Part shown: one piece after another, positions 32,130 to 39,196 of the stretch
Position numbering within the stretch: the stretch's first letter is position 1
Layout: every line of letters starts with the position of its first letter
Origin: Zestosphaera tikiterensis
GTDB taxonomy: Archaea > Thermoproteota > Thermoprotei_A > Sulfolobales > NBVN01
Direction: 5' to 3'
Length of the DNA: 64,000 bases
NCBI GenBank assembly: GCA_003056265.1
Contig: NBVN01000002.1
Location: 83,700-147,699, forward strand
Made by a program: the position numbers and the translations under genes
Notes under the pieces: generated by a model
What the model was told of the DNA's origin: nothing
Databases searched by the model: none
What the model saw: the letters and a program-made list of their open reading frames with translations, nothing else

Positions 32130-32223
32130 CGCGGCCTGCGGCCGCGACTCCGGTTGATCCTGCCGGACCCGACCGCTATCGGGGTGAGGCTAAGCCATGG
32201 GAGTCGAACGCCTCGAACACCGA

Positions 32224-32257
<34 letters not shown>

Positions 32258-32423
32258 CTACCCTCGGGACGGGGACAGTCCCGGGAAACTGGGGCTAATA
32301 CCCGATAGGTGAGGGCGCCTGGAAGGGTCCCTCACCGAAAGGGCTTCACGGGGATGTCCGTGAAGCCGCCCGAGGATGGGGCCACGGCCTATCAGGTAGT
32401 TGGCGGGGTAACGGCCCGCCAAG

Positions 32424-32462
<39 letters not shown>

Positions 32463-32469
32463 ATGGGCC

Positions 32470-32514
<45 letters not shown>

Positions 32515-32612
32515 CTCCGCAATGCGGGAAACCGTGACGGGGTCACCCCGAGTGCCCCGAAGAGGGGCTTTTCCCCGCTGTAAATAGGCGGGGGAATAAG
32601 CGGGGGGCAAGT

Positions 32613-32649
<37 letters not shown>

Positions 32650-32701
32650 ACCAGGCCTCACCCATTAACCTATTTAAACATGGGTTGAGGTCCGGCGCGG
32701 A
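32650..32701 (+). other. 16S mini-intron 1 (52 nt, ORF-less hairpin)
   Basis: It interrupts the conserved CCAGCCCCGCGAG | TGGTCGGGACGG. The insert folds as GGCCTCACCCAT...ATGGGTTGAGGTCC. Boundaries are good to a few nt. Confidence 0.75.
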
Positions 32702-32839
32702 TGGTCGGGACGGTTATTGGGCCTAAAGCGCCCGTAGCCGGCCCGGTAAGTCCTCCCTTAAAACTCGGGGCTCAACCCCGAGCCGGGGAGGATACTGCCG
32801 GGCTAGGGGGCGGGAGAGGCCGAGGGTACTCCCGGGGTA

Positions 32840-33511
32840 ATGGAGGAATCTTGGGCAGGACCGCTTTATAGGGGGAAGTTTCTATTTACAATATTTACAA
32901 TAGGGAGTTATGATGTGTGAAGCATACTTAGCTGGATTAATAGCTGCTGATGGACACATTAATCCTAAGGATTACTCGATAACAATATATACGGGTGATC
33001 TTGGGAGAGCACAGACTATAAAGAATATGCTGGAAAAGCTAACCTGCAATAAAGTTAGTATCAGAAACCATAATGGAGCATATGAAGTCACTGTAACAGA
33101 TAAGAAGCTTACATTAAAGTTTTCCACTAAATACATGATCCCTATTGGTAGGAAGTCTGAACAAATAATATTACCAACAACCAATATTAATAAGAGGGAA
33201 TTATTAGAATTCATAGCTGGATACTTTGATGGTGACGGCTCAATATACAGACGTATACATAGGGCAAGGGATGGTAGAATCAGAGTTTACTACGAGGTAA
33301 AAGTTAAGAGTAAGAGCTTATACTTCCTTAATCAATTGAGAAACCTACTTGCCTCATACAACATAGTTTCTCGTGTGAAAGTATATAAAAACATGATTCC
33401 GTACCTTGTTGTTTCACGTAAAGGCGATGTTATACGGTTCTTTAGAATTTTTAAACCAAGATTTAAAAACCTTTAAAACCCCTAAACCCTGCCTGGGATC
33501 CTCCACCCCAA
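32840..33511 (+). other. 16S intron 2 (672 nt) carrying a LAGLIDADG ORF
   Basis: It interrupts CTCCCGGGGTA | GGGGCGAAATCCGATAATCCCGGGAGGACC. The termini GGAGGAATCTTGGGCAGG and CCTGCCTGGGATCCTCC are complementary, and the interior is AT-rich. Confidence 0.85.
32910..33476 (+). CDS. double-motif LAGLIDADG homing endonuclease (intron-encoded)
   Basis: 188 aa with LAGLIAADG and IAGYFDGDG motifs ~100 residues apart. It lies wholly inside the 16S intron. Confidence 0.88.
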   Translation: MMCEAYLAGLIAADGHINPKDYSITIYTGDLGRAQTIKNMLEKLTCNKVSIRNHNGAYEVTVTDKKLTLKFSTKYMIPIGRKSEQIILPTTNINKRELLEFIAGYFDGDGSIYRRIHRARDGRIRVYYEVKVKSKSLYFLNQLRNLLASYNIVSRVKVYKNMIPYLVVSRKGDVIRFFRIFKPRFKNL

Positions 33512-33596
33512 GGGGCGAAATCCGATAATCCCGGGAGGACCACCAGTGGCGAAGGCGCTCGGCTGGAACGCCCCCGACGGTGAGGGGCGAAAGCCG

Positions 33597-33630
<34 letters not shown>

Positions 33631-33731
33631 CGGCTGTAAACGATGCGGGCTAGCTGTTGGACGGGCTTAGAGCCCGTCCAGTGGCGCAGGGAAGCCGTTA
33701 AGCCCGCCGCCTGGGGAGTACGGCCGCAAGG

Positions 33732-33775
<44 letters not shown>

Positions 33776-33890
33776 GCCTGCGGCTCAATTGGAGTCAACG
33801 CCAGGAATCTTACCGGGGGCGACAGCAGGATGATGGCCAGGCTAACGACCTTGCCGGACACGCTGAGAGGAGGTGCATGGCCGTCGCCAG

Positions 33891-33932
33891 ACACGCCTAT
33901 GGCAAGATCAAGGATGCCATGGCGTGGGCGAA
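33891..33932 (+). other. 16S mini-intron 3 (42 nt)
   Basis: It interrupts GGCCGTCGCCAG | CTCGTGTTGTGAAATGT. The hairpin is CACGCCATGGCA...TGCCATGGCGTG. Confidence 0.75.
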
Positions 33933-34077
33933 CTCGTGTTGTGAAATGTCTGGTTAAGTCCAGCAACGAGCGAGACCCCCACCCCTAGTTGCTACCCGGC
34001 TCTTTTGGGTCGGGGCACACTAGGGGGACTGCCGCCGTTAAAGGCGGAGGAAGGAGGGGGCCACGGCAGGTCAGCAT

Positions 34078-34109
34078 AAGGGTCTGGCTTTAAGGCCGAC
34101 CCTGCTGAA
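34078..34109 (+). other. 16S mini-intron 4 (32 nt)
   Basis: It interrupts GGCAGGTCAGCAT | GCCCCGAAACCCCCGGGCTGCACGCGGGCTACAATGG. The hairpin is AGGGTC...GACCCT. Confidence 0.7.
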
Positions 34110-34266
34110 GCCCCGAAACCCCCGGGCTGCACGCGGGCTACAATGGCGGGGACAGCGGGATCCGACCCCGAAAGGGGGAGGTAATCCCTCAAACCCCGCC
34201 GTAGTTGGGATCGAGGACTGTAACTCGTCCTCGTGAACGAGGAATCCCTAGTAACCGCGCGTCAAC

Positions 34267-34317
<51 letters not shown>

Positions 34318-34384
34318 TCCGAGTGAAGAGGGGGTGAGGCCCACTCTGCCGGGGTTTCCCGGTAGGGTGGGTCGAACCTCCTCT

Positions 34385-34449
<65 letters not shown>

Positions 34450-34548: not shown

Positions 34549-34591
34549 CGCCACGCACAGGTTCCAACGCAACTGTACTAACCAACACCCG
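34549..34591 (+). other. 5' strand of the 23S processing stem (pairs with 39099-39141)
   Basis: CGCCACGCACAGGTTC pairs with GAACCTGTGCGTGGCG, and GTACTAACCAACACCCG pairs with CGGGTGTTGGTTAGTAC. A ~10-nt internal mismatch separates the two helices. Confidence 0.8.
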
Positions 34592-34980
34592 AGGCGTCGG
34601 CGCGAAGCCGTCTGGTGGATGGCTCGGCTCGGGCGCCGATGAAGGGCGCGGCAAGCGGCGATATGCCCGGGGTAGGCGCAAGCAGCCGTCGAACCCGGGA
34701 TTCCCGAATGGGACTTCCTGCTGAGGGTTAACAGCCCTCAGCGCCCCCATTCGGGGGCGGGAACCCCCCGAACGGAAACATCTTAGTAGGGGGAGGAAAA
34801 GAAATCAAATTGAGATCCCCTGAGTAGGGGCGACCGAAAGGGGGACAGCCCAAACCAAATCCCCACGGGATAACCGTGGGGAGATGTGGGGTTATCGGCT
34901 CCACGGCTGGGGCTCGACCCCAGCGAGCCGACCCACCGTAGCCGAAGTGGGCTGGAATGCCCCACCGTAGAGGGTGACAG

Positions 34981-35019
34981 TCTGGGGGCAGGCGTTGATT
35001 GCTCTGCCCTCAGGTCAAC
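34981..35019 (+). other. 23S mini-insert 1 (39 nt), probable intron
   Basis: It interrupts GAGGGTGACAG | TCCCGTAGGC (compare bacterial GUGACAGCCCCGUA). The hairpin is GGGCAG...CTGCCC. Confidence 0.6.
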
Positions 35020-35872
35020 TCCCGTAGGCTAAACGGTGGGGGCTCGTGCCGTGGAGCAGAGTACCACGGCTTGGTTTTGCCGTGGGAAGTCGGGGGTCAC
35101 CGACCTCCAAGGCTAAATACGTCCCGAGACCGATAGCGCACTAAGTACCGTGAGGGAAAGCTGAAAAGTACCCCGGAAGGGGGGTGAAAAGAGCCTGAAA
35201 CCAGGCGGCTAATAACGGTGCGGCTCGAAAGGGGTGAATCCCCCCGAAGGAAAAACGGGTGACCGTTGAGTACGAGGGGGGAGGACCGGGGTCGCACCGT
35301 CCGTCTTGAAACACGGGCCGGGGAGTTCACGGCAGTGGCGAGCTTAAGGGGGTTAACCCCGAAGGCGTAGGGAAACCGACCTGCCCGCAGCGGGAAACCG
35401 TGAGGGGCGGGGTCTGCAAGGGCCTGGAGTCACTGCCGTGAGACCCGAAACCGGGCGATCTAGGCGGGGGTAGGGTGAAGCCGGGGGAAACCCCGGTGGA
35501 GGCCCGAAGGGGTGCTGACGTGCAATTCGCTCCTCTAACCTCCGCCTAGGGGCAAAAGACCAATCTAGCCCGGTGATAGCTGGTTCCCTCCGAAGTGTGT
35601 CTCAGCACAGCCCCGCTGGAGGTGGGTCACGGGGTAGAGCTACGGATTGAGGGTGCCGTGAGCCGGAAGGCTCCGGGCTCTCAGTCCAACTCCGAACCCG
35701 TGGCCACCGTAGAAGGCGGGAGTGGGGCGCCCCGGGGTAAGCCTGGGGGCCGAGAGGGGAACAACCCAGGCCGGGGTTAAGGCCCCAAAGTGCCGGCTAA
35801 GTGCCAAACGTAAAGGGCGTCCGCGGCCTAAGACAGCGGGAAGGTGGGCCTAACAGCAGCCATCCTCTAAAG

Positions 35873-35899
35873 GCAGGGCCTAAAACCCTGCCGGGGAGG
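35873..35899 (+). other. 23S mini-insert 2 (27 nt), probable intron
   Basis: It interrupts CCATCCTCTAAAG | GAGTGCGTAA. The hairpin is GCAGGG-CCTAAAA-CCCTGC. Confidence 0.55.
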
Positions 35900-35909
35900 G
35901 AGTGCGTAA

Positions 35910-36635
35910 GCCACTTATCTCTCCGCCAATTTTAAAATGAATCGTACTGCATAATAATGGGTCGAGTATGTAAAATGACTGAGAGGATATATTTAAAAGC
36001 ATATATTGCTGGTGCTTTAAGAGACGGTTACATTGGAAGGTATGTAGAAAGAAAGAATAGCAAGGAGCATTGGGTGCTGAGAATATATAGCAAGGATGTA
36101 GAATGGCTTAATGAATTGGTTAAAATACTCAAGTACGCATATGGATTTGAGACAAATGTGATAATCCCACATAGAGGTATACCGTATATAGAGAAATACT
36201 CAAAGAAAATAGTGGAGCATATCGCTAAAGAGTTAAACCACCCAATAGGTAAATCAATAAACTGGGACACGCCAATGTTCATTAAAAACACCAACGATAA
36301 GGGTATATGGAGGTATTACATAGCTGGATTCTTCGATGCAGAGGGTGGAGTGGATATAACTAAGAAGCAATTGAAGATATACCAATCATGGAGAGGTGAA
36401 GTATGTCCCCCATTAATGGATATAAAAGATAAGATGCTAACTCTTTTTGGAATAGAGAGTGGGGAAGTATCCAGGTACCCTAATAGAAGATACAACCCAA
36501 GATTCGTTGTAAGAATAAAGAAAAAATACACATATATGTTTTACAAAACTTTCCCATTATTAAACCCATCTAAAATAAACAAGATCAAGCTCATTATTTA
36601 AATCCTTTTAGGGCGGAGGGATGGTGGCCGCAAAA
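35910..36635 (+). other. 23S intron 3 (726 nt) carrying a LAGLIDADG ORF
   Basis: It interrupts GAGTGCGTAA | CAGCTCACCCGCCGAGG. The termini GCCACTTATCTCTCCGCC and GGCGGAGGGATGGTGGC are complementary. Confidence 0.85.
35957..36601 (+). CDS. double-motif LAGLIDADG homing endonuclease (intron-encoded)
   Basis: 214 aa with YIAGALRDG and IAGFFDAEG motifs. Confidence 0.85.
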   Translation: MGRVCKMTERIYLKAYIAGALRDGYIGRYVERKNSKEHWVLRIYSKDVEWLNELVKILKYAYGFETNVIIPHRGIPYIEKYSKKIVEHIAKELNHPIGKSINWDTPMFIKNTNDKGIWRYYIAGFFDAEGGVDITKKQLKIYQSWRGEVCPPLMDIKDKMLTLFGIESGEVSRYPNRRYNPRFVVRIKKKYTYMFYKTFPLLNPSKINKIKLII

Positions 36636-37462
36636 CAGCTCACCCGCCGAGGCCGCGGGCCCCGAAAATACGTCGGGGCTTAAGCCGGCCGCCGAGACCC
36701 CGGGGCACGGCCTCCATGAGGCCGTGATCCGGTAGGAGGGCGTCGGGATGGGGTAGAAGTCGGGCCGTGAGGTCCGATGGACCCGTCCCGAGTGCGGATC
36801 CCGGCGGTAGTAACAGCAAAGTGGGGTGAGAATCCCCACGGCCGGAAGGGCCAGGGTTCCTCAGCAACGGTCGTCAGCTGAGGGTTAGCCGGTCCTAAGG
36901 CAGGCCGTAACTCGGTCCTGCCGAAAGGGAAACGGGTTAATATTCCCGTGCCGCGGAGGTAGGTGCGGCAACGCAAGCCCGAACCCTGACGCGTCGAGGT
37001 AGGCCGACCGAGGCAGCCGCCTCGGCTAACTACCCGAAGGCCGGGGAGTGCCGTAACGGCGAGAACCGGCTGAAGGGAGGAATGGCCCCCGTTAGGGGGT
37101 TCGGCCGAGCCTCGGCGCCCTTGAAAAGGGGTTCGGGAACGAACCTCCGCGACCGTACCGAGAACCGACACAGGTGCCCCTGGGTGAGGAGCCCAAGGCT
37201 TGTGGGGGCTAACCCAGGCTAGGGAACTCGGCAAATTAGCCCCGTAACTTCGGGATAAGGGGTGCCTGCGGTTCTGCGGAAAACCCGTGGAACCGCGGGT
37301 CGCAGTGACAAGGGGGTCCTGACTGTTTAATAAAAACATAGCTCCCCGCTAGTCCGAAAGGATTAGTACGGGGGGTGAATCCTGGCCACTGGCGGTACGT
37401 GAAGCCGGGGTACAACCCGGTGAAGCGCCGCTGAAGGCCGGGGGTAACTCTGACCCTCTTAA

Positions 37463-38046
37463 CGGGGGTCTCCCACCCGCTAGCAACACGGTAGTTTATA
37501 CTTATTACATGGGTGGAAAAGATGCAACTGGGACTGGTGAGGTAATGAGGCCAGAAATAATAGGATATGTTGTGGGCTTCATTGATGCTGAAGGGAGTTT
37601 CTCAGTGAGCGTGAAGTTACAGAAAGACGTTGTATATGGAGTGAGGCTTGATCCCGTCTTCAGCATAACTCAGCAAGGGAGGGAGCCTCTTGAAGTTATC
37701 GCTGATGTACTTAATGCGGGAAGAATAATTCGAAAGCCTGGTCAAAGACACCTGTGGTTGCTTATAGTAGATAGAATGAGTGAGCTGACTCAGAGCTTAA
37801 TACCGTTCTTGGACAAATACAGGGATCTCCTTCTAGCTAAGAGAGAAATATATGAGCTGTTTAGGGAGATAGTCATTGGCTTGCATAGTGGAATGCATAA
37901 AAGACCTGCGGGTCTTAAGAAGCTTGTGACTTTATCTTACAGCCTCTCTAGATTGAACTCGAAGGCCCATAGAAAGAGGGCCCTTAAACAAATTTTAGAA
38001 ATAATCGATTCCCGTGTTGCCGAGTGGGGGGAGCCCCCGGGAGATA
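37463..38046 (+). other. 23S intron 4 (584 nt) carrying a single-motif LAGLIDADG ORF
   Basis: It interrupts GGTAACTCTGACCCTCTTAA | GGTAGCCAAATGCCTTGCCGGGTAAG. Confidence 0.85.
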
Positions 38047-38051
38047 GGTAG
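37509..38051 (+). CDS. single-motif LAGLIDADG homing endonuclease (intron-encoded)
   Basis: 180 aa with one VVGFIDAEG motif near the N-terminus. The stop codon TAG (38049-38051) lies in the downstream exon sequence GGTAGCC. Confidence 0.85.
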   Translation: MGGKDATGTGEVMRPEIIGYVVGFIDAEGSFSVSVKLQKDVVYGVRLDPVFSITQQGREPLEVIADVLNAGRIIRKPGQRHLWLLIVDRMSELTQSLIPFLDKYRDLLLAKREIYELFREIVIGLHSGMHKRPAGLKKLVTLSYSLSRLNSKAHRKRALKQILEIIDSRVAEWGEPPGDR

Positions 38052-38072
38052 CCAAATGCCTTGCCGGGTAAG

Positions 38073-38117
38073 GCAGGCACCACGTATTGCATAATATGTG
38101 GTGTCTGCCCTCGACAG
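38073..38117 (+). other. 23S mini-intron 5 (45 nt)
   Basis: It interrupts GCCTTGCCGGGTAAG | TTCCGGCGCGCATGAATGG. The hairpin is GCAGGCACCAC...GTGGTGTCTGC. The boundary is ambiguous by 1 nt. Confidence 0.75.
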
Positions 38118-38713
38118 TTCCGGCGCGCATGAATGGATCAACGAGGGCCCCACTGTCCCAGCCTGGGACCCCGTGAAGCCCACGGGGCTGGTGCACAGGC
38201 CAGCATCCCCCCGTAGGGAGAGAAGACCTCGTGGAGCTTTACCGCAGCCTGGCGTTGGTTCTCGGGTTGCGGTGCGTAGCGTAGGCGGGAGGCTGTGAAC
38301 CCACTCTTCCGGGGGTGGGTGAGCCGTAAGTGAAACACCGCCTACCGCGATCTGAGGGCCTAACCTCGGGTTCGCCCGAGGGACAGCGTCAGGTGGGCGG
38401 TTCGGCTGGGGCGGCACGCCTGCGAAAAGATAACACAGGCGCCCAAAGGTCAGCTCAGGCGGGTCAGAACTCCGCCGTAGAGTGCAAGGGCAAAAGCTGG
38501 CCTTACCAGACCCTTGAACGTAAGGGGTCTGGTCGGGAAACCGCGGCCTAGCGAACGCTCGTGCCCCCTTCGGTGGGGGCCGGGCATGACAGAAAAGTTA
38601 CCCCGAGGATAACAGGGTCGTCGCGGGCGAGAGTCCCCATCGACCCCGCGGTTTGCTACATCGATGTCGGCTCTTCCCATCCTGGGAGTGCAGCAGCTCC
38701 CAAGGGTGGGGCT

Positions 38714-38763
38714 AAGGGGGTAAGGCGCTTAAGAAGGTAAGCGTTCTTCCCCCTCCCTAAGCC
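38714..38763 (+). other. 23S mini-insert 6 (about 48-50 nt), probable intron
   Basis: It interrupts CCAAGGGTGGGGCT | CGCCCATTAAAGGGGAGCGTGAGCTGG, a hairpin loop in other 23S rRNAs. The insert is an imperfect hairpin, AGGGGGTAAGGCGCTTA...TAAGCGTTCTTCCCCCT. Boundaries are uncertain. Confidence 0.55.
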
Positions 38764-39196
38764 CGCCCATTAAAGGGGAGCGTGAGCTGGGTTTAGAGCG
38801 TCGTGAGACAGCTCGGACTCTACCCACGGGGGGTGCGGGCCGCCTGAGGGGAAGGCATCCCAAGTACGAAAGGAACGGGATGTCGCGGCCTCTGGTCTAC
38901 CGGCTGTCCGGCAGGGCATGCCGGGCAGCTACGCCGTGCGAGCTAACCGCTGAAAGCATCTAAGCGGGAAGCTCGCCCCGAAAAGAGGCGGCCGTTCGCC
39001 GGAGGTTCCCTCCGGCGACGAGGGCACCCGTAGAAGACGGGTTTGATGGGGCGGGGGTGTATGCCCGCCGCTCCCAATAGCCCGAGGCTGACGCTTGCCG
39101 GGTGTTGGTTAGTACGGTGTTGATAGAACCTGTGCGTGGCGTGAGGTATTTCTTAATCATTTATTTTGAGGTATTCACCTCATCGTTTTTAAACGT

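Follow-up and report, generated by a model that had tools for sequence, protein, structure and literature searches.

A 584-nt homing-endonuclease intron and a 45-nt mini-intron occupy neighbouring target sites in the Zestosphaera tikiterensis 23S rRNA gene

The 23S ribosomal RNA (rRNA) gene of the hot-spring archaeon Zestosphaera tikiterensis is interrupted in the region of helices H69 to H71 by two closely spaced inserts of 584 and 45 nucleotides (nt), located in a stretch of 64,000 nt that was analysed as a whole (contig NBVN01000002.1 of assembly GCA_003056265.1, positions 83,700–147,699; hereafter the window, on which all coordinates are given). Both inserts fall into archaeal intron classes that are already well known, and there is nothing out of the ordinary in their biology. 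The larger carries a gene for a single-motif LAGLIDADG homing endonuclease and, judged from its sequence, is a member of the archaeal L1927 lineage of I-Vdi141I and I-ApeKII, not of the I-CeuI family, while the smaller lacks an open reading frame (ORF) and splits a target site of the I-DmoI type. The two are probably best read together as a mobile bulge-helix-bulge (BHB) intron of the I-Vdi141I lineage beside a 45-nt BHB mini-intron that represents a decayed intron of the I-DmoI type.

The inserts belong to an archaeal rRNA operon (16S, 32147–34447; 23S, 34591–39097) in which both genes far exceed the length of their Rfam models. Long proteins encoded in the window (6/6) are identical to those of the metagenome-assembled genome of Z. 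tikiterensis (Desulfurococcaceae). Alignment of positions 37100–38500 to the Rfam model LSU_rRNA_archaea revealed exactly two inserts, both in the H69–H71 region and both with flanks aligned at high posterior probability. The large insert (585 residues against 1 model position, corresponding to 584 nt) falls between ...GACCCUCUUA(A) and GGUAGCC, the small insert (47 residues against 2 model positions, corresponding to 45 nt) falls between ...CCGGGUAA and UCCGGCGCG (inside CCGGGUAA..UCCGG), and the two are separated by a micro-exon of 25–26 nt. The identical 584 + 45 arrangement occurs in an independent Logan assembly (L011; SRR17771679), which makes an assembly artefact unlikely and, along with the Rfam alignment, confirms the two 23S inserts recognized in a preliminary description of this DNA. 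The boundaries given in that description (37463–38046 and 38073–38117, with a micro-exon of 26 nt) are one valid parse of several, as terminal bases are repeated and the intron ends can be moved, by 1 nt for the large intron and by as many as 2 nt for the mini-intron. Site numbering follows Escherichia coli K-12 rrlB (2904 nt), in which the conserved block GGCCGUAAC...GGCGUAA begins at 1906, such that the bases around the insertion points are U1926, A1927, A1928, and G1929 for the large intron and U1951, A1952, A1953, and G1954 for the small intron; the large intron may be placed after either 1927 or 1928, the small one after 1952, 1953, or 1954. The group I and group II intron families of Rfam had no matches in the window and, with junctions that are of the BHB type, identity as a group I or group II intron was rejected.

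Archaeal splicing proceeds by an established route involving the splicing endonuclease EndA and the ligase RtcB, in which the BHB structure is cut after the second base of each bulge. Applying this rule, the introns extend over 37462–38045 and 38071–38115, the micro-exon AGGUAGCCAAAUGCCUUGCCGGGUA over 38046–38070 (+ strand, as are all parts of both introns; 25 nt, E. coli 1928–1952, rather than the 26 nt of the preliminary parse), and both joins are seamless, with junctions at A1927|A1928 and A1952|A1953. For the large intron, the exon bases CUCU (37456–37459) in the 5' half of the structure (37456–37462) form the central 4-bp helix with GGAG (38040–38043) in the 3' half (38040–38046), flanked by the bulges UAA (37460–37462) and AUA (38044–38046), with predicted cuts after A37461 (E. 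coli A1927) and after U38045. For the mini-intron, the central helix is formed by the exon bases CGGG (38065–38068) in the 5' half (38065–38071) and CUCG (38110–38113), the bulges are UAA (38069–38071) and ACA (38114–38116), and the 5' cut is predicted after A38070 (E. coli A1952). Both inserts possess the central helix of the BHB class, paired at 4/4 positions, and its two 3-nt bulges on opposite strands, continued by an inner helix (H2) of 7 contiguous base pairs in the large intron and of 17 in the mini-intron. The latter helix is a perfect hairpin (38072–38088 with 38093–38109, loop GCAU; z = −4.1 relative to shuffled sequences). A complete central helix (4/4) with 5–18 contiguous intron base pairs is a feature of all distinct introns collected at 1952 (40/40) and at 1927 (23/23), despite very different helix sequences. 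The joined exons are predicted to read ...CUCUUA|AGGUAGCC... and ...GGGUA|AGUUCC..., and removal of the introns leaves an Rfam large subunit (LSU) alignment that is unbroken across both joins and matches E. coli 1906–1978 base for base. Based on these sequence features, both inserts are predicted to be spliced out of the 23S pre-rRNA: the ends of each intron would pair with the neighbouring exon to place a 4-bp helix between two 3-nt bulges, EndA would cleave both bulges, and RtcB would join the exons and circularize the intron, with the outcome that the universally conserved H69–H71 sequence would be restored.

The 584-nt intron (37462–38045) differs from the flanking rRNA in G+C content (~45% and ~64%, respectively) and contains a homing endonuclease gene (37545–38051, + strand) encoding 168 amino acids (aa) with the single LAGLIDADG motif VVGFIDAEG. 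An alternative ATG upstream, at 37509, would extend the ORF to 180 aa (37509–38051), the form considered in the preliminary description, and its assignment there as a single-motif LAGLIDADG protein agrees with a match to Pfam LAGLIDADG_1 (PF00961; 1e-13) in one single stretch. Translation probably begins at the internal methionine M13 (37545). This start is likelier given that homologues of 168 aa predominate among the nearest relatives (51 homologues were found, mostly 159–175 aa, and the closest ten are nearly all 168 aa), that the ORF of the closest relative is 168 aa without the upstream extension, and that a Shine-Dalgarno-like GGUGA (37536–37540), complementary to the 16S 3' end UCACC, precedes M13. 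An exact look-up of the 180-aa form returned nothing, whereas a database entry exists for the 168-aa form (P0001). Upstream of the gene, TTTATA (37495–37500, + strand) may be an archaeal TATA box, in which case the endonuclease gene would have a promoter of its own inside the intron; similar A/T-rich boxes come after the terminal stems in long introns of other loci. The ORF crosses the 3' splice site, with the last two codons (AGG TAG) falling in the downstream micro-exon and the stop codon supplied by TAG within the conserved exon GGUAGCC (38046–38051), 6 nt into the micro-exon. On a circularized intron, the frame would run on for 12 further codons to a UAG near the 5' end of the intron.

Amongst proteins of known structure, the endonuclease is closest to PDB 3e54 (E-value 4e-42 over residues 19–168, with one gap), and VVGFIDAEG aligns with ILGFIEAEG such that the catalytic AEG is kept. 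This structure is that of I-Vdi141I from Vulcanisaeta distributa, a homodimer encoded in the intron Vdi141.L1927 that cuts CCTGACTCTC^TTAA^GGTAGCCAAA, and a similar enzyme, I-ApeKII, has been mentioned for Aeropyrum (PMC2602781). Features of the I-Vdi141I/I-ApeKII lineage that are present in the window include a single motif, a length of ~165–170 aa, full-length homology, and a BHB intron located after A1927 within the pseudopalindrome ...CTC TTAA GGTAGCC..., and the reconstituted 1927 target differs from the I-Vdi141I site at 2 of 24 positions. All of the long 1927 introns recovered carry homologues of the endonuclease, with ORFs in every stage of decay (166, 91, 57, 38, and 35 aa). The intact 168-aa enzyme of the window, of the homodimer type, should cleave intron-less alleles at ...GACCCUC^TTAA^GGTAGCCAAA (predicted target TCTGACCCTCTTAAGGTAGCCAAA), an activity that, going by its relatives, would be of the type leaving a 4-nt 3' overhang (TTAA), and repair of the double-strand break would then copy the 584-nt intron into the cut allele. 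The closest relative (82% identity in the endonuclease; L009 and L010) possesses the 1927 intron while its 1952 site is empty, which indicates that the introns at 1927 and 1952 have separate histories. A partial homologue of the 1927 endonuclease (P0049; 107 aa, 54% identical) was also observed in Candidatus Terraquivivens tikiterensis, whose name suggests an origin in the Tikitere hot springs that it would share with Z. tikiterensis. If this organism belongs, as seems likely, to another archaeal phylum (Aigarchaeota), the homologue hints at a cross-phylum transfer of the 1927 intron lineage.

The preliminary description had instead placed the large intron at the target of I-CeuI and had suggested a relationship of its ORF to the I-CeuI family. 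Some of the evidence is compatible with this assignment: the I-CeuI recognition sequence covers the equivalent ribosomal DNA (rDNA), its top-strand cut (after ...CTAA) matches the junction as drawn in that description, and both enzymes are single-motif LAGLIDADG_1 proteins, with the I-CeuI structure (PDB 2ex5) matched at an E-value of 3.2e-8 over 86 residues. The overlap of the I-CeuI recognition sequence with the site stands, but the position does not, as the target of I-CeuI is LSU n.1923 (PMC3315327) and the intron in the window is at 1927 (or 1928), with the preferred junction 4 nt downstream. The family relationship fails in the structure comparison, where the match to I-Vdi141I is better than that to I-CeuI by 34 orders of magnitude in E-value. 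Further, the intron of I-CeuI is a chloroplast group I intron, while the element in the window is a BHB intron. An I-CeuI-family element at the I-CeuI site is therefore extremely improbable, and membership in that family was rejected on the insertion site, the intron type, and the nearest relative. Differing in both position and lineage, I-CeuI is the wrong comparator; the eukaryotic analogue of I-Vdi141I at a near-identical site is I-PpoI, a His-Cys box enzyme (PMC2602781).

The 45-nt mini-intron (38071–38115, + strand) is inserted inside GGGTAA/GTTCC in the loop of H71 (E. coli 1952–1954), which corresponds to the I-DmoI-type site. It has no ORF, and at 45 nt encodes no two-motif endonuclease of the I-DmoI family, but possesses all of the features of the short hairpin introns of rRNA (<~50 nt, a single hairpin, a BHB structure, and no ORF). 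Species-representative genomes and JGI metagenomes were scanned for the exon string as far as GGGTAAG followed by a base other than T, and an insert at the identical junction was found at 51 other loci (8 + 43); the genome of the window itself was not among the hits of the species-representative scan. The inserts at this site form a length series from 28 to ~1100 nt (28, 34, 45, 50, 97, 322, 334, 409, 553–651, and ~1095 nt). The long 1952 introns tested from other Thermoproteota encode two-motif homologues of I-DmoI (relative to PDB I-DmoI, E-values of 2.5e-39 for the ORF of L008 and 2e-22 for that of L004), while the introns of Pyrobaculum and Thermoproteus have shortened ORFs or, at 409 nt, none. 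The proposal in the preliminary description that the mini-intron splits an I-DmoI-type site is borne out by these homologues, as the junction in L004 and L008 is identical to that of the window, and the mapping given in that description holds within the 2-nt ambiguity. The exact recognition sequence and cut positions of I-DmoI itself are presumed here. One of the loci, L007 (JAPWVA010000258.1), is a 2.9-kb contig binned as ‘Actinomycetota bacterium’ that contains a 23S fragment of the Pyrobaculum/Thermoproteus type with a 621-nt intron at 1952, and is almost certainly a mis-binned archaeal contig.

By analogy with other introns at the same site, the 45-mer is most likely the end state of the deletional decay of a former I-DmoI-type intron at 1952. 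The 50-nt mini-intron of L002 and the 555-nt intron of L038 have the first 16 nt and 18 of the last 20 nt in common, and the 28-nt mini-intron of L039 has 7 + 14 terminal nucleotides in common with an intron of the Pyrobaculum type. As these two mini-introns share their termini with long introns, decay by deletion does occur at 1952, and the same pattern of mini and long introns is seen at 1927 (41 nt in L004 and 577 nt in L031; 41 nt in L022 and 615 nt in L052). A remnant of this kind would retain only the essentials of splicing, the BHB core and a closing hairpin, and there are two reasons for which it may persist: the H71 loop would tolerate precise excision alone, and a 45-mer that splits the I-DmoI-type target would leave the allele unavailable to re-invasion. 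That the allele should be immune in this manner is soundly expected from homing biology.

Several observations weigh against the reading of a spliced and decayed intron. The outer exon-exon helices comprise just 3 bp in the large intron and 2 bp in the mini-intron, compared to inner helices of 7 and 17 bp, making these relaxed forms of the BHB structure. Folded in isolation, the RNA reaches its energy minimum not as the BHB but as the mature H71 stem, from which the hairpin protrudes, and the native H71 fold is favored both at 37 °C (−43.7 vs −36.2 kcal/mol for the BHB) and at 80 °C (−13.2 vs −7.7 kcal/mol). The BHB would need to be selected by the enzyme or by the folding pathway, though this would be equally so for every intron at 1952, and since all of these have a competing native H71 stem, the unconstrained fold was not counted against splicing. 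With respect to origin, no parent of the 45-mer (termini AGGCAGGCACCAC...GUGGUGUCUGCCCUCGAC) was found among the 40 distinct 1952 introns. The best combined match of prefix and suffix to any long intron is 4 nt, the terminal 20 nt are no more alike than expected from background, and the likeness to the ends of long introns goes no further than the few bases that the BHB and the pairing with the exon dictate. The suggestion in the preliminary description that the mini-intron is a deleted remnant thus holds for the site, where other mini-introns trace to long introns, but not for the termini of the 45-mer, which match no long intron; lacking a parent, its remnant origin is argued by analogy.

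Two other explanations of the 45-mer were weighed against decay. It may be a hitch-hiker, spread or kept by co-conversion when the 1927 intron homes, with the cleavage site of the latter only 25 bp away. There is precedent in 16S rRNA, where the endonuclease of Pog.S1213 brings about the co-conversion of its neighbour, the hairpin intron Pog.S1205, together with the 8 nt between them, and the same mechanism has been proposed for the 16S loci 901 and 908 (PMC4496867). Both endonuclease introns in the 23S gene of the window adjoin a hairpin mini-intron, at distances of 10 nt (sites 1085/1095; see below) and 25 nt (sites 1927/1952), and in a sample of 53 loci with a 1952 insert the 1927 site is also occupied in 30, in all combinations of mini and long introns, among which the mirror arrangement (mini-intron at 1927, long intron at 1952) is common. 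These loci were selected for occupancy of 1952 and are not independent samples, such that an association with 1927 is not measurable from them. In addition, the 1952 site is empty in the closest relative with an endonuclease of this lineage (82% identity), and a Sulfolobales genome (L001; see below) has mini-introns at all four sites with zero endonuclease genes, from which it follows that mini-introns persist undriven. Hitch-hiking accounts for the persistence of a mini-intron rather than for its origin, is compatible with the origin of the 45-mer as a remnant, and is regarded here as a tentative and on balance unlikely explanation. A combination of the two processes, in which the neighbouring endonuclease spreads the mini-intron by co-conversion and the mini-intron blocks a rival endonuclease lineage at the adjacent site, is more doubtful still; on this view, the pairing of hairpin mini-introns with endonuclease-coding introns would be no coincidence. 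If true, selfish elements would be competing over adjacent targets in the rDNA, or practising a form of “vaccination” there, a situation described for one 16S pair but without a described counterpart in 23S.

The 45-nt insert could also remain unspliced, either as an expansion segment of the rRNA in the H71 loop or as an artefact of sequencing or assembly. The minimum-energy fold would suit an expansion segment, as it leaves the native H71 stem intact with the hairpin as a simple extension. H71 is, however, a conserved intersubunit contact of the ribosome, and the insert has the canonical BHB core, in which 4/4 central positions pair and the two 3-nt bulges are so placed that the exons join seamlessly, a geometry that is repeated in 40 distinct inserts at 1952, endonuclease-coding ones included. 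As for an artefact, the insert is seen again in the independent read set L011. An unspliced or artefactual insert is consequently considered very improbable, and decay of an I-DmoI-type intron is retained as the probable history of the 45-mer.

Beyond the H69–H71 region, the operon contains further introns. In the GTPase-associated centre of 23S (region 35865–36635), a single Rfam insert of 756 nt resolves into a second twin pair, consisting of a 28-nt hairpin BHB intron after E. coli A1085 (35871–35898), a micro-exon of 10 nt (GGAGUGCGUA; 35899–35908), and a 726-nt BHB intron after E. coli A1095 (35909–36634). The spliced join at 1085/1095 matches the archaeal consensus exactly, though the cmscan alignment is of low confidence there. 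The 726-nt intron carries a LAGLIDADG_3 ORF of 214 aa (35957–36601), for which no relative was found in PDB. The 16S gene contains a 672-nt BHB intron (32840–33511; central helix GGGG/CCCC) after E. coli A687 in the helix of the 690 loop, with an ORF for a 188-aa two-motif LAGLIDADG protein (PF14528, 2.6e-21; PDB 2dch, 8e-9); in the list of 13 loci for 16S introns given by Jay & Inskeep 2015 (PMC4496867), position 687 does not appear. All four of the 23S sites are filled by mini-introns in L001 (Sulfolobales metagenome-assembled genome SKYB35, JANXDZ010000001.1, around locus position 2400 and upstream), at 1085 (36 nt), 1095 (49 nt), 1927 (33 nt), and 1952 (34 nt), and zero endonuclease genes were found at these sites. 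At both the 5' end (AGCCACCTACCTCTCCG) and the 3' end (GTGGCCGCAA), the 1095 mini-intron of L001 agrees with the 726-nt intron of the window, and on this basis it seems to have been derived by deletion from an intron of that type.

The closest known systems differ for the two introns. The large intron resembles Vdi141.L1927 with I-Vdi141I (3e54), and the intron of I-ApeKII from Aeropyrum pernix, in its position after A1927, the BHB structure, a single-motif endonuclease of the homodimer class with 168–169 aa, and a near-identical target. It is distinguished from Vdi141.L1927 by its host order (Desulfurococcales), by an endonuclease in which approximately half of the aligned residues are identical (estimated by eye), by two positions of the target, and by an ORF whose stop codon lies in the downstream micro-exon. 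Conserved rDNA of the H69 region is likewise targeted by I-CeuI (Chlamydomonas chloroplast LSU) and by I-PpoI (Physarum nuclear LSU), the latter being reported to recognize almost the same sequence as I-Vdi141I (PMC2602781). Both of these are nonetheless located in group I introns, and I-CeuI inserts at 1923 and has weak similarity (E-value 3e-8), while I-PpoI has another protein fold.

The mini-intron is comparable to the I-DmoI intron of Desulfurococcus mobilis in its junction in GGGTAA/GTTCC of the H71 loop, as established via the I-DmoI homologues at the junction, in its BHB structure, and in its host family, the Desulfurococcaceae, to which both Z. tikiterensis and D. mobilis belong. Unlike that intron, it is 45 nt in length without an ORF, and its likeness to the termini of long introns is limited to the bases forced by the BHB. 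Mini-introns in the 23S gene of Staphylothermus marinus were reportedly described by Kjems and Garrett in 1991. Hairpin-forming introns of archaeal rRNA have been defined as <50 nt in a survey of 16S genes (Jay & Inskeep 2015, PMC4496867), and Pog.S1205 beside Pog.S1213 offers the same combination of a minimal hairpin and BHB, without an ORF, in such proximity to an endonuclease-coding intron that a micro-exon results (PMC4496867). In contrast to the 16S pair, the pair in the window is located in 23S, has a spacer of 25 nt compared to 7–8 nt, and includes an endonuclease that would be expected to cut its own site 25 bp away rather than the site of the mini-intron.

Short hairpin introns located beside endonuclease-coding introns are already known from 16S rRNA, and the present case changes no concept. 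It does have practical consequences, as the 23S gene needs an annotation that is aware of introns, with automatic rRNA alignment having concealed a 10-nt micro-exon in the same gene, and primers or probes that span H69–H71 or the GTPase centre will fail on Z. tikiterensis. Together, the 23S introns at 1927 and 1952 constitute a size series from ~1100 down to 28 nt, in which some of the mini-introns can be traced to long parents and the sites are often co-occupied. This series would be a modest but useful addition, as 23S introns were stated in the 2015 survey not to be analysable for want of genomes (PMC4496867). The pair in Z. tikiterensis provides a clean example of the life cycle of homing endonucleases in archaeal rDNA, with an apparently intact mobile intron beside a minimal spliceable stub.

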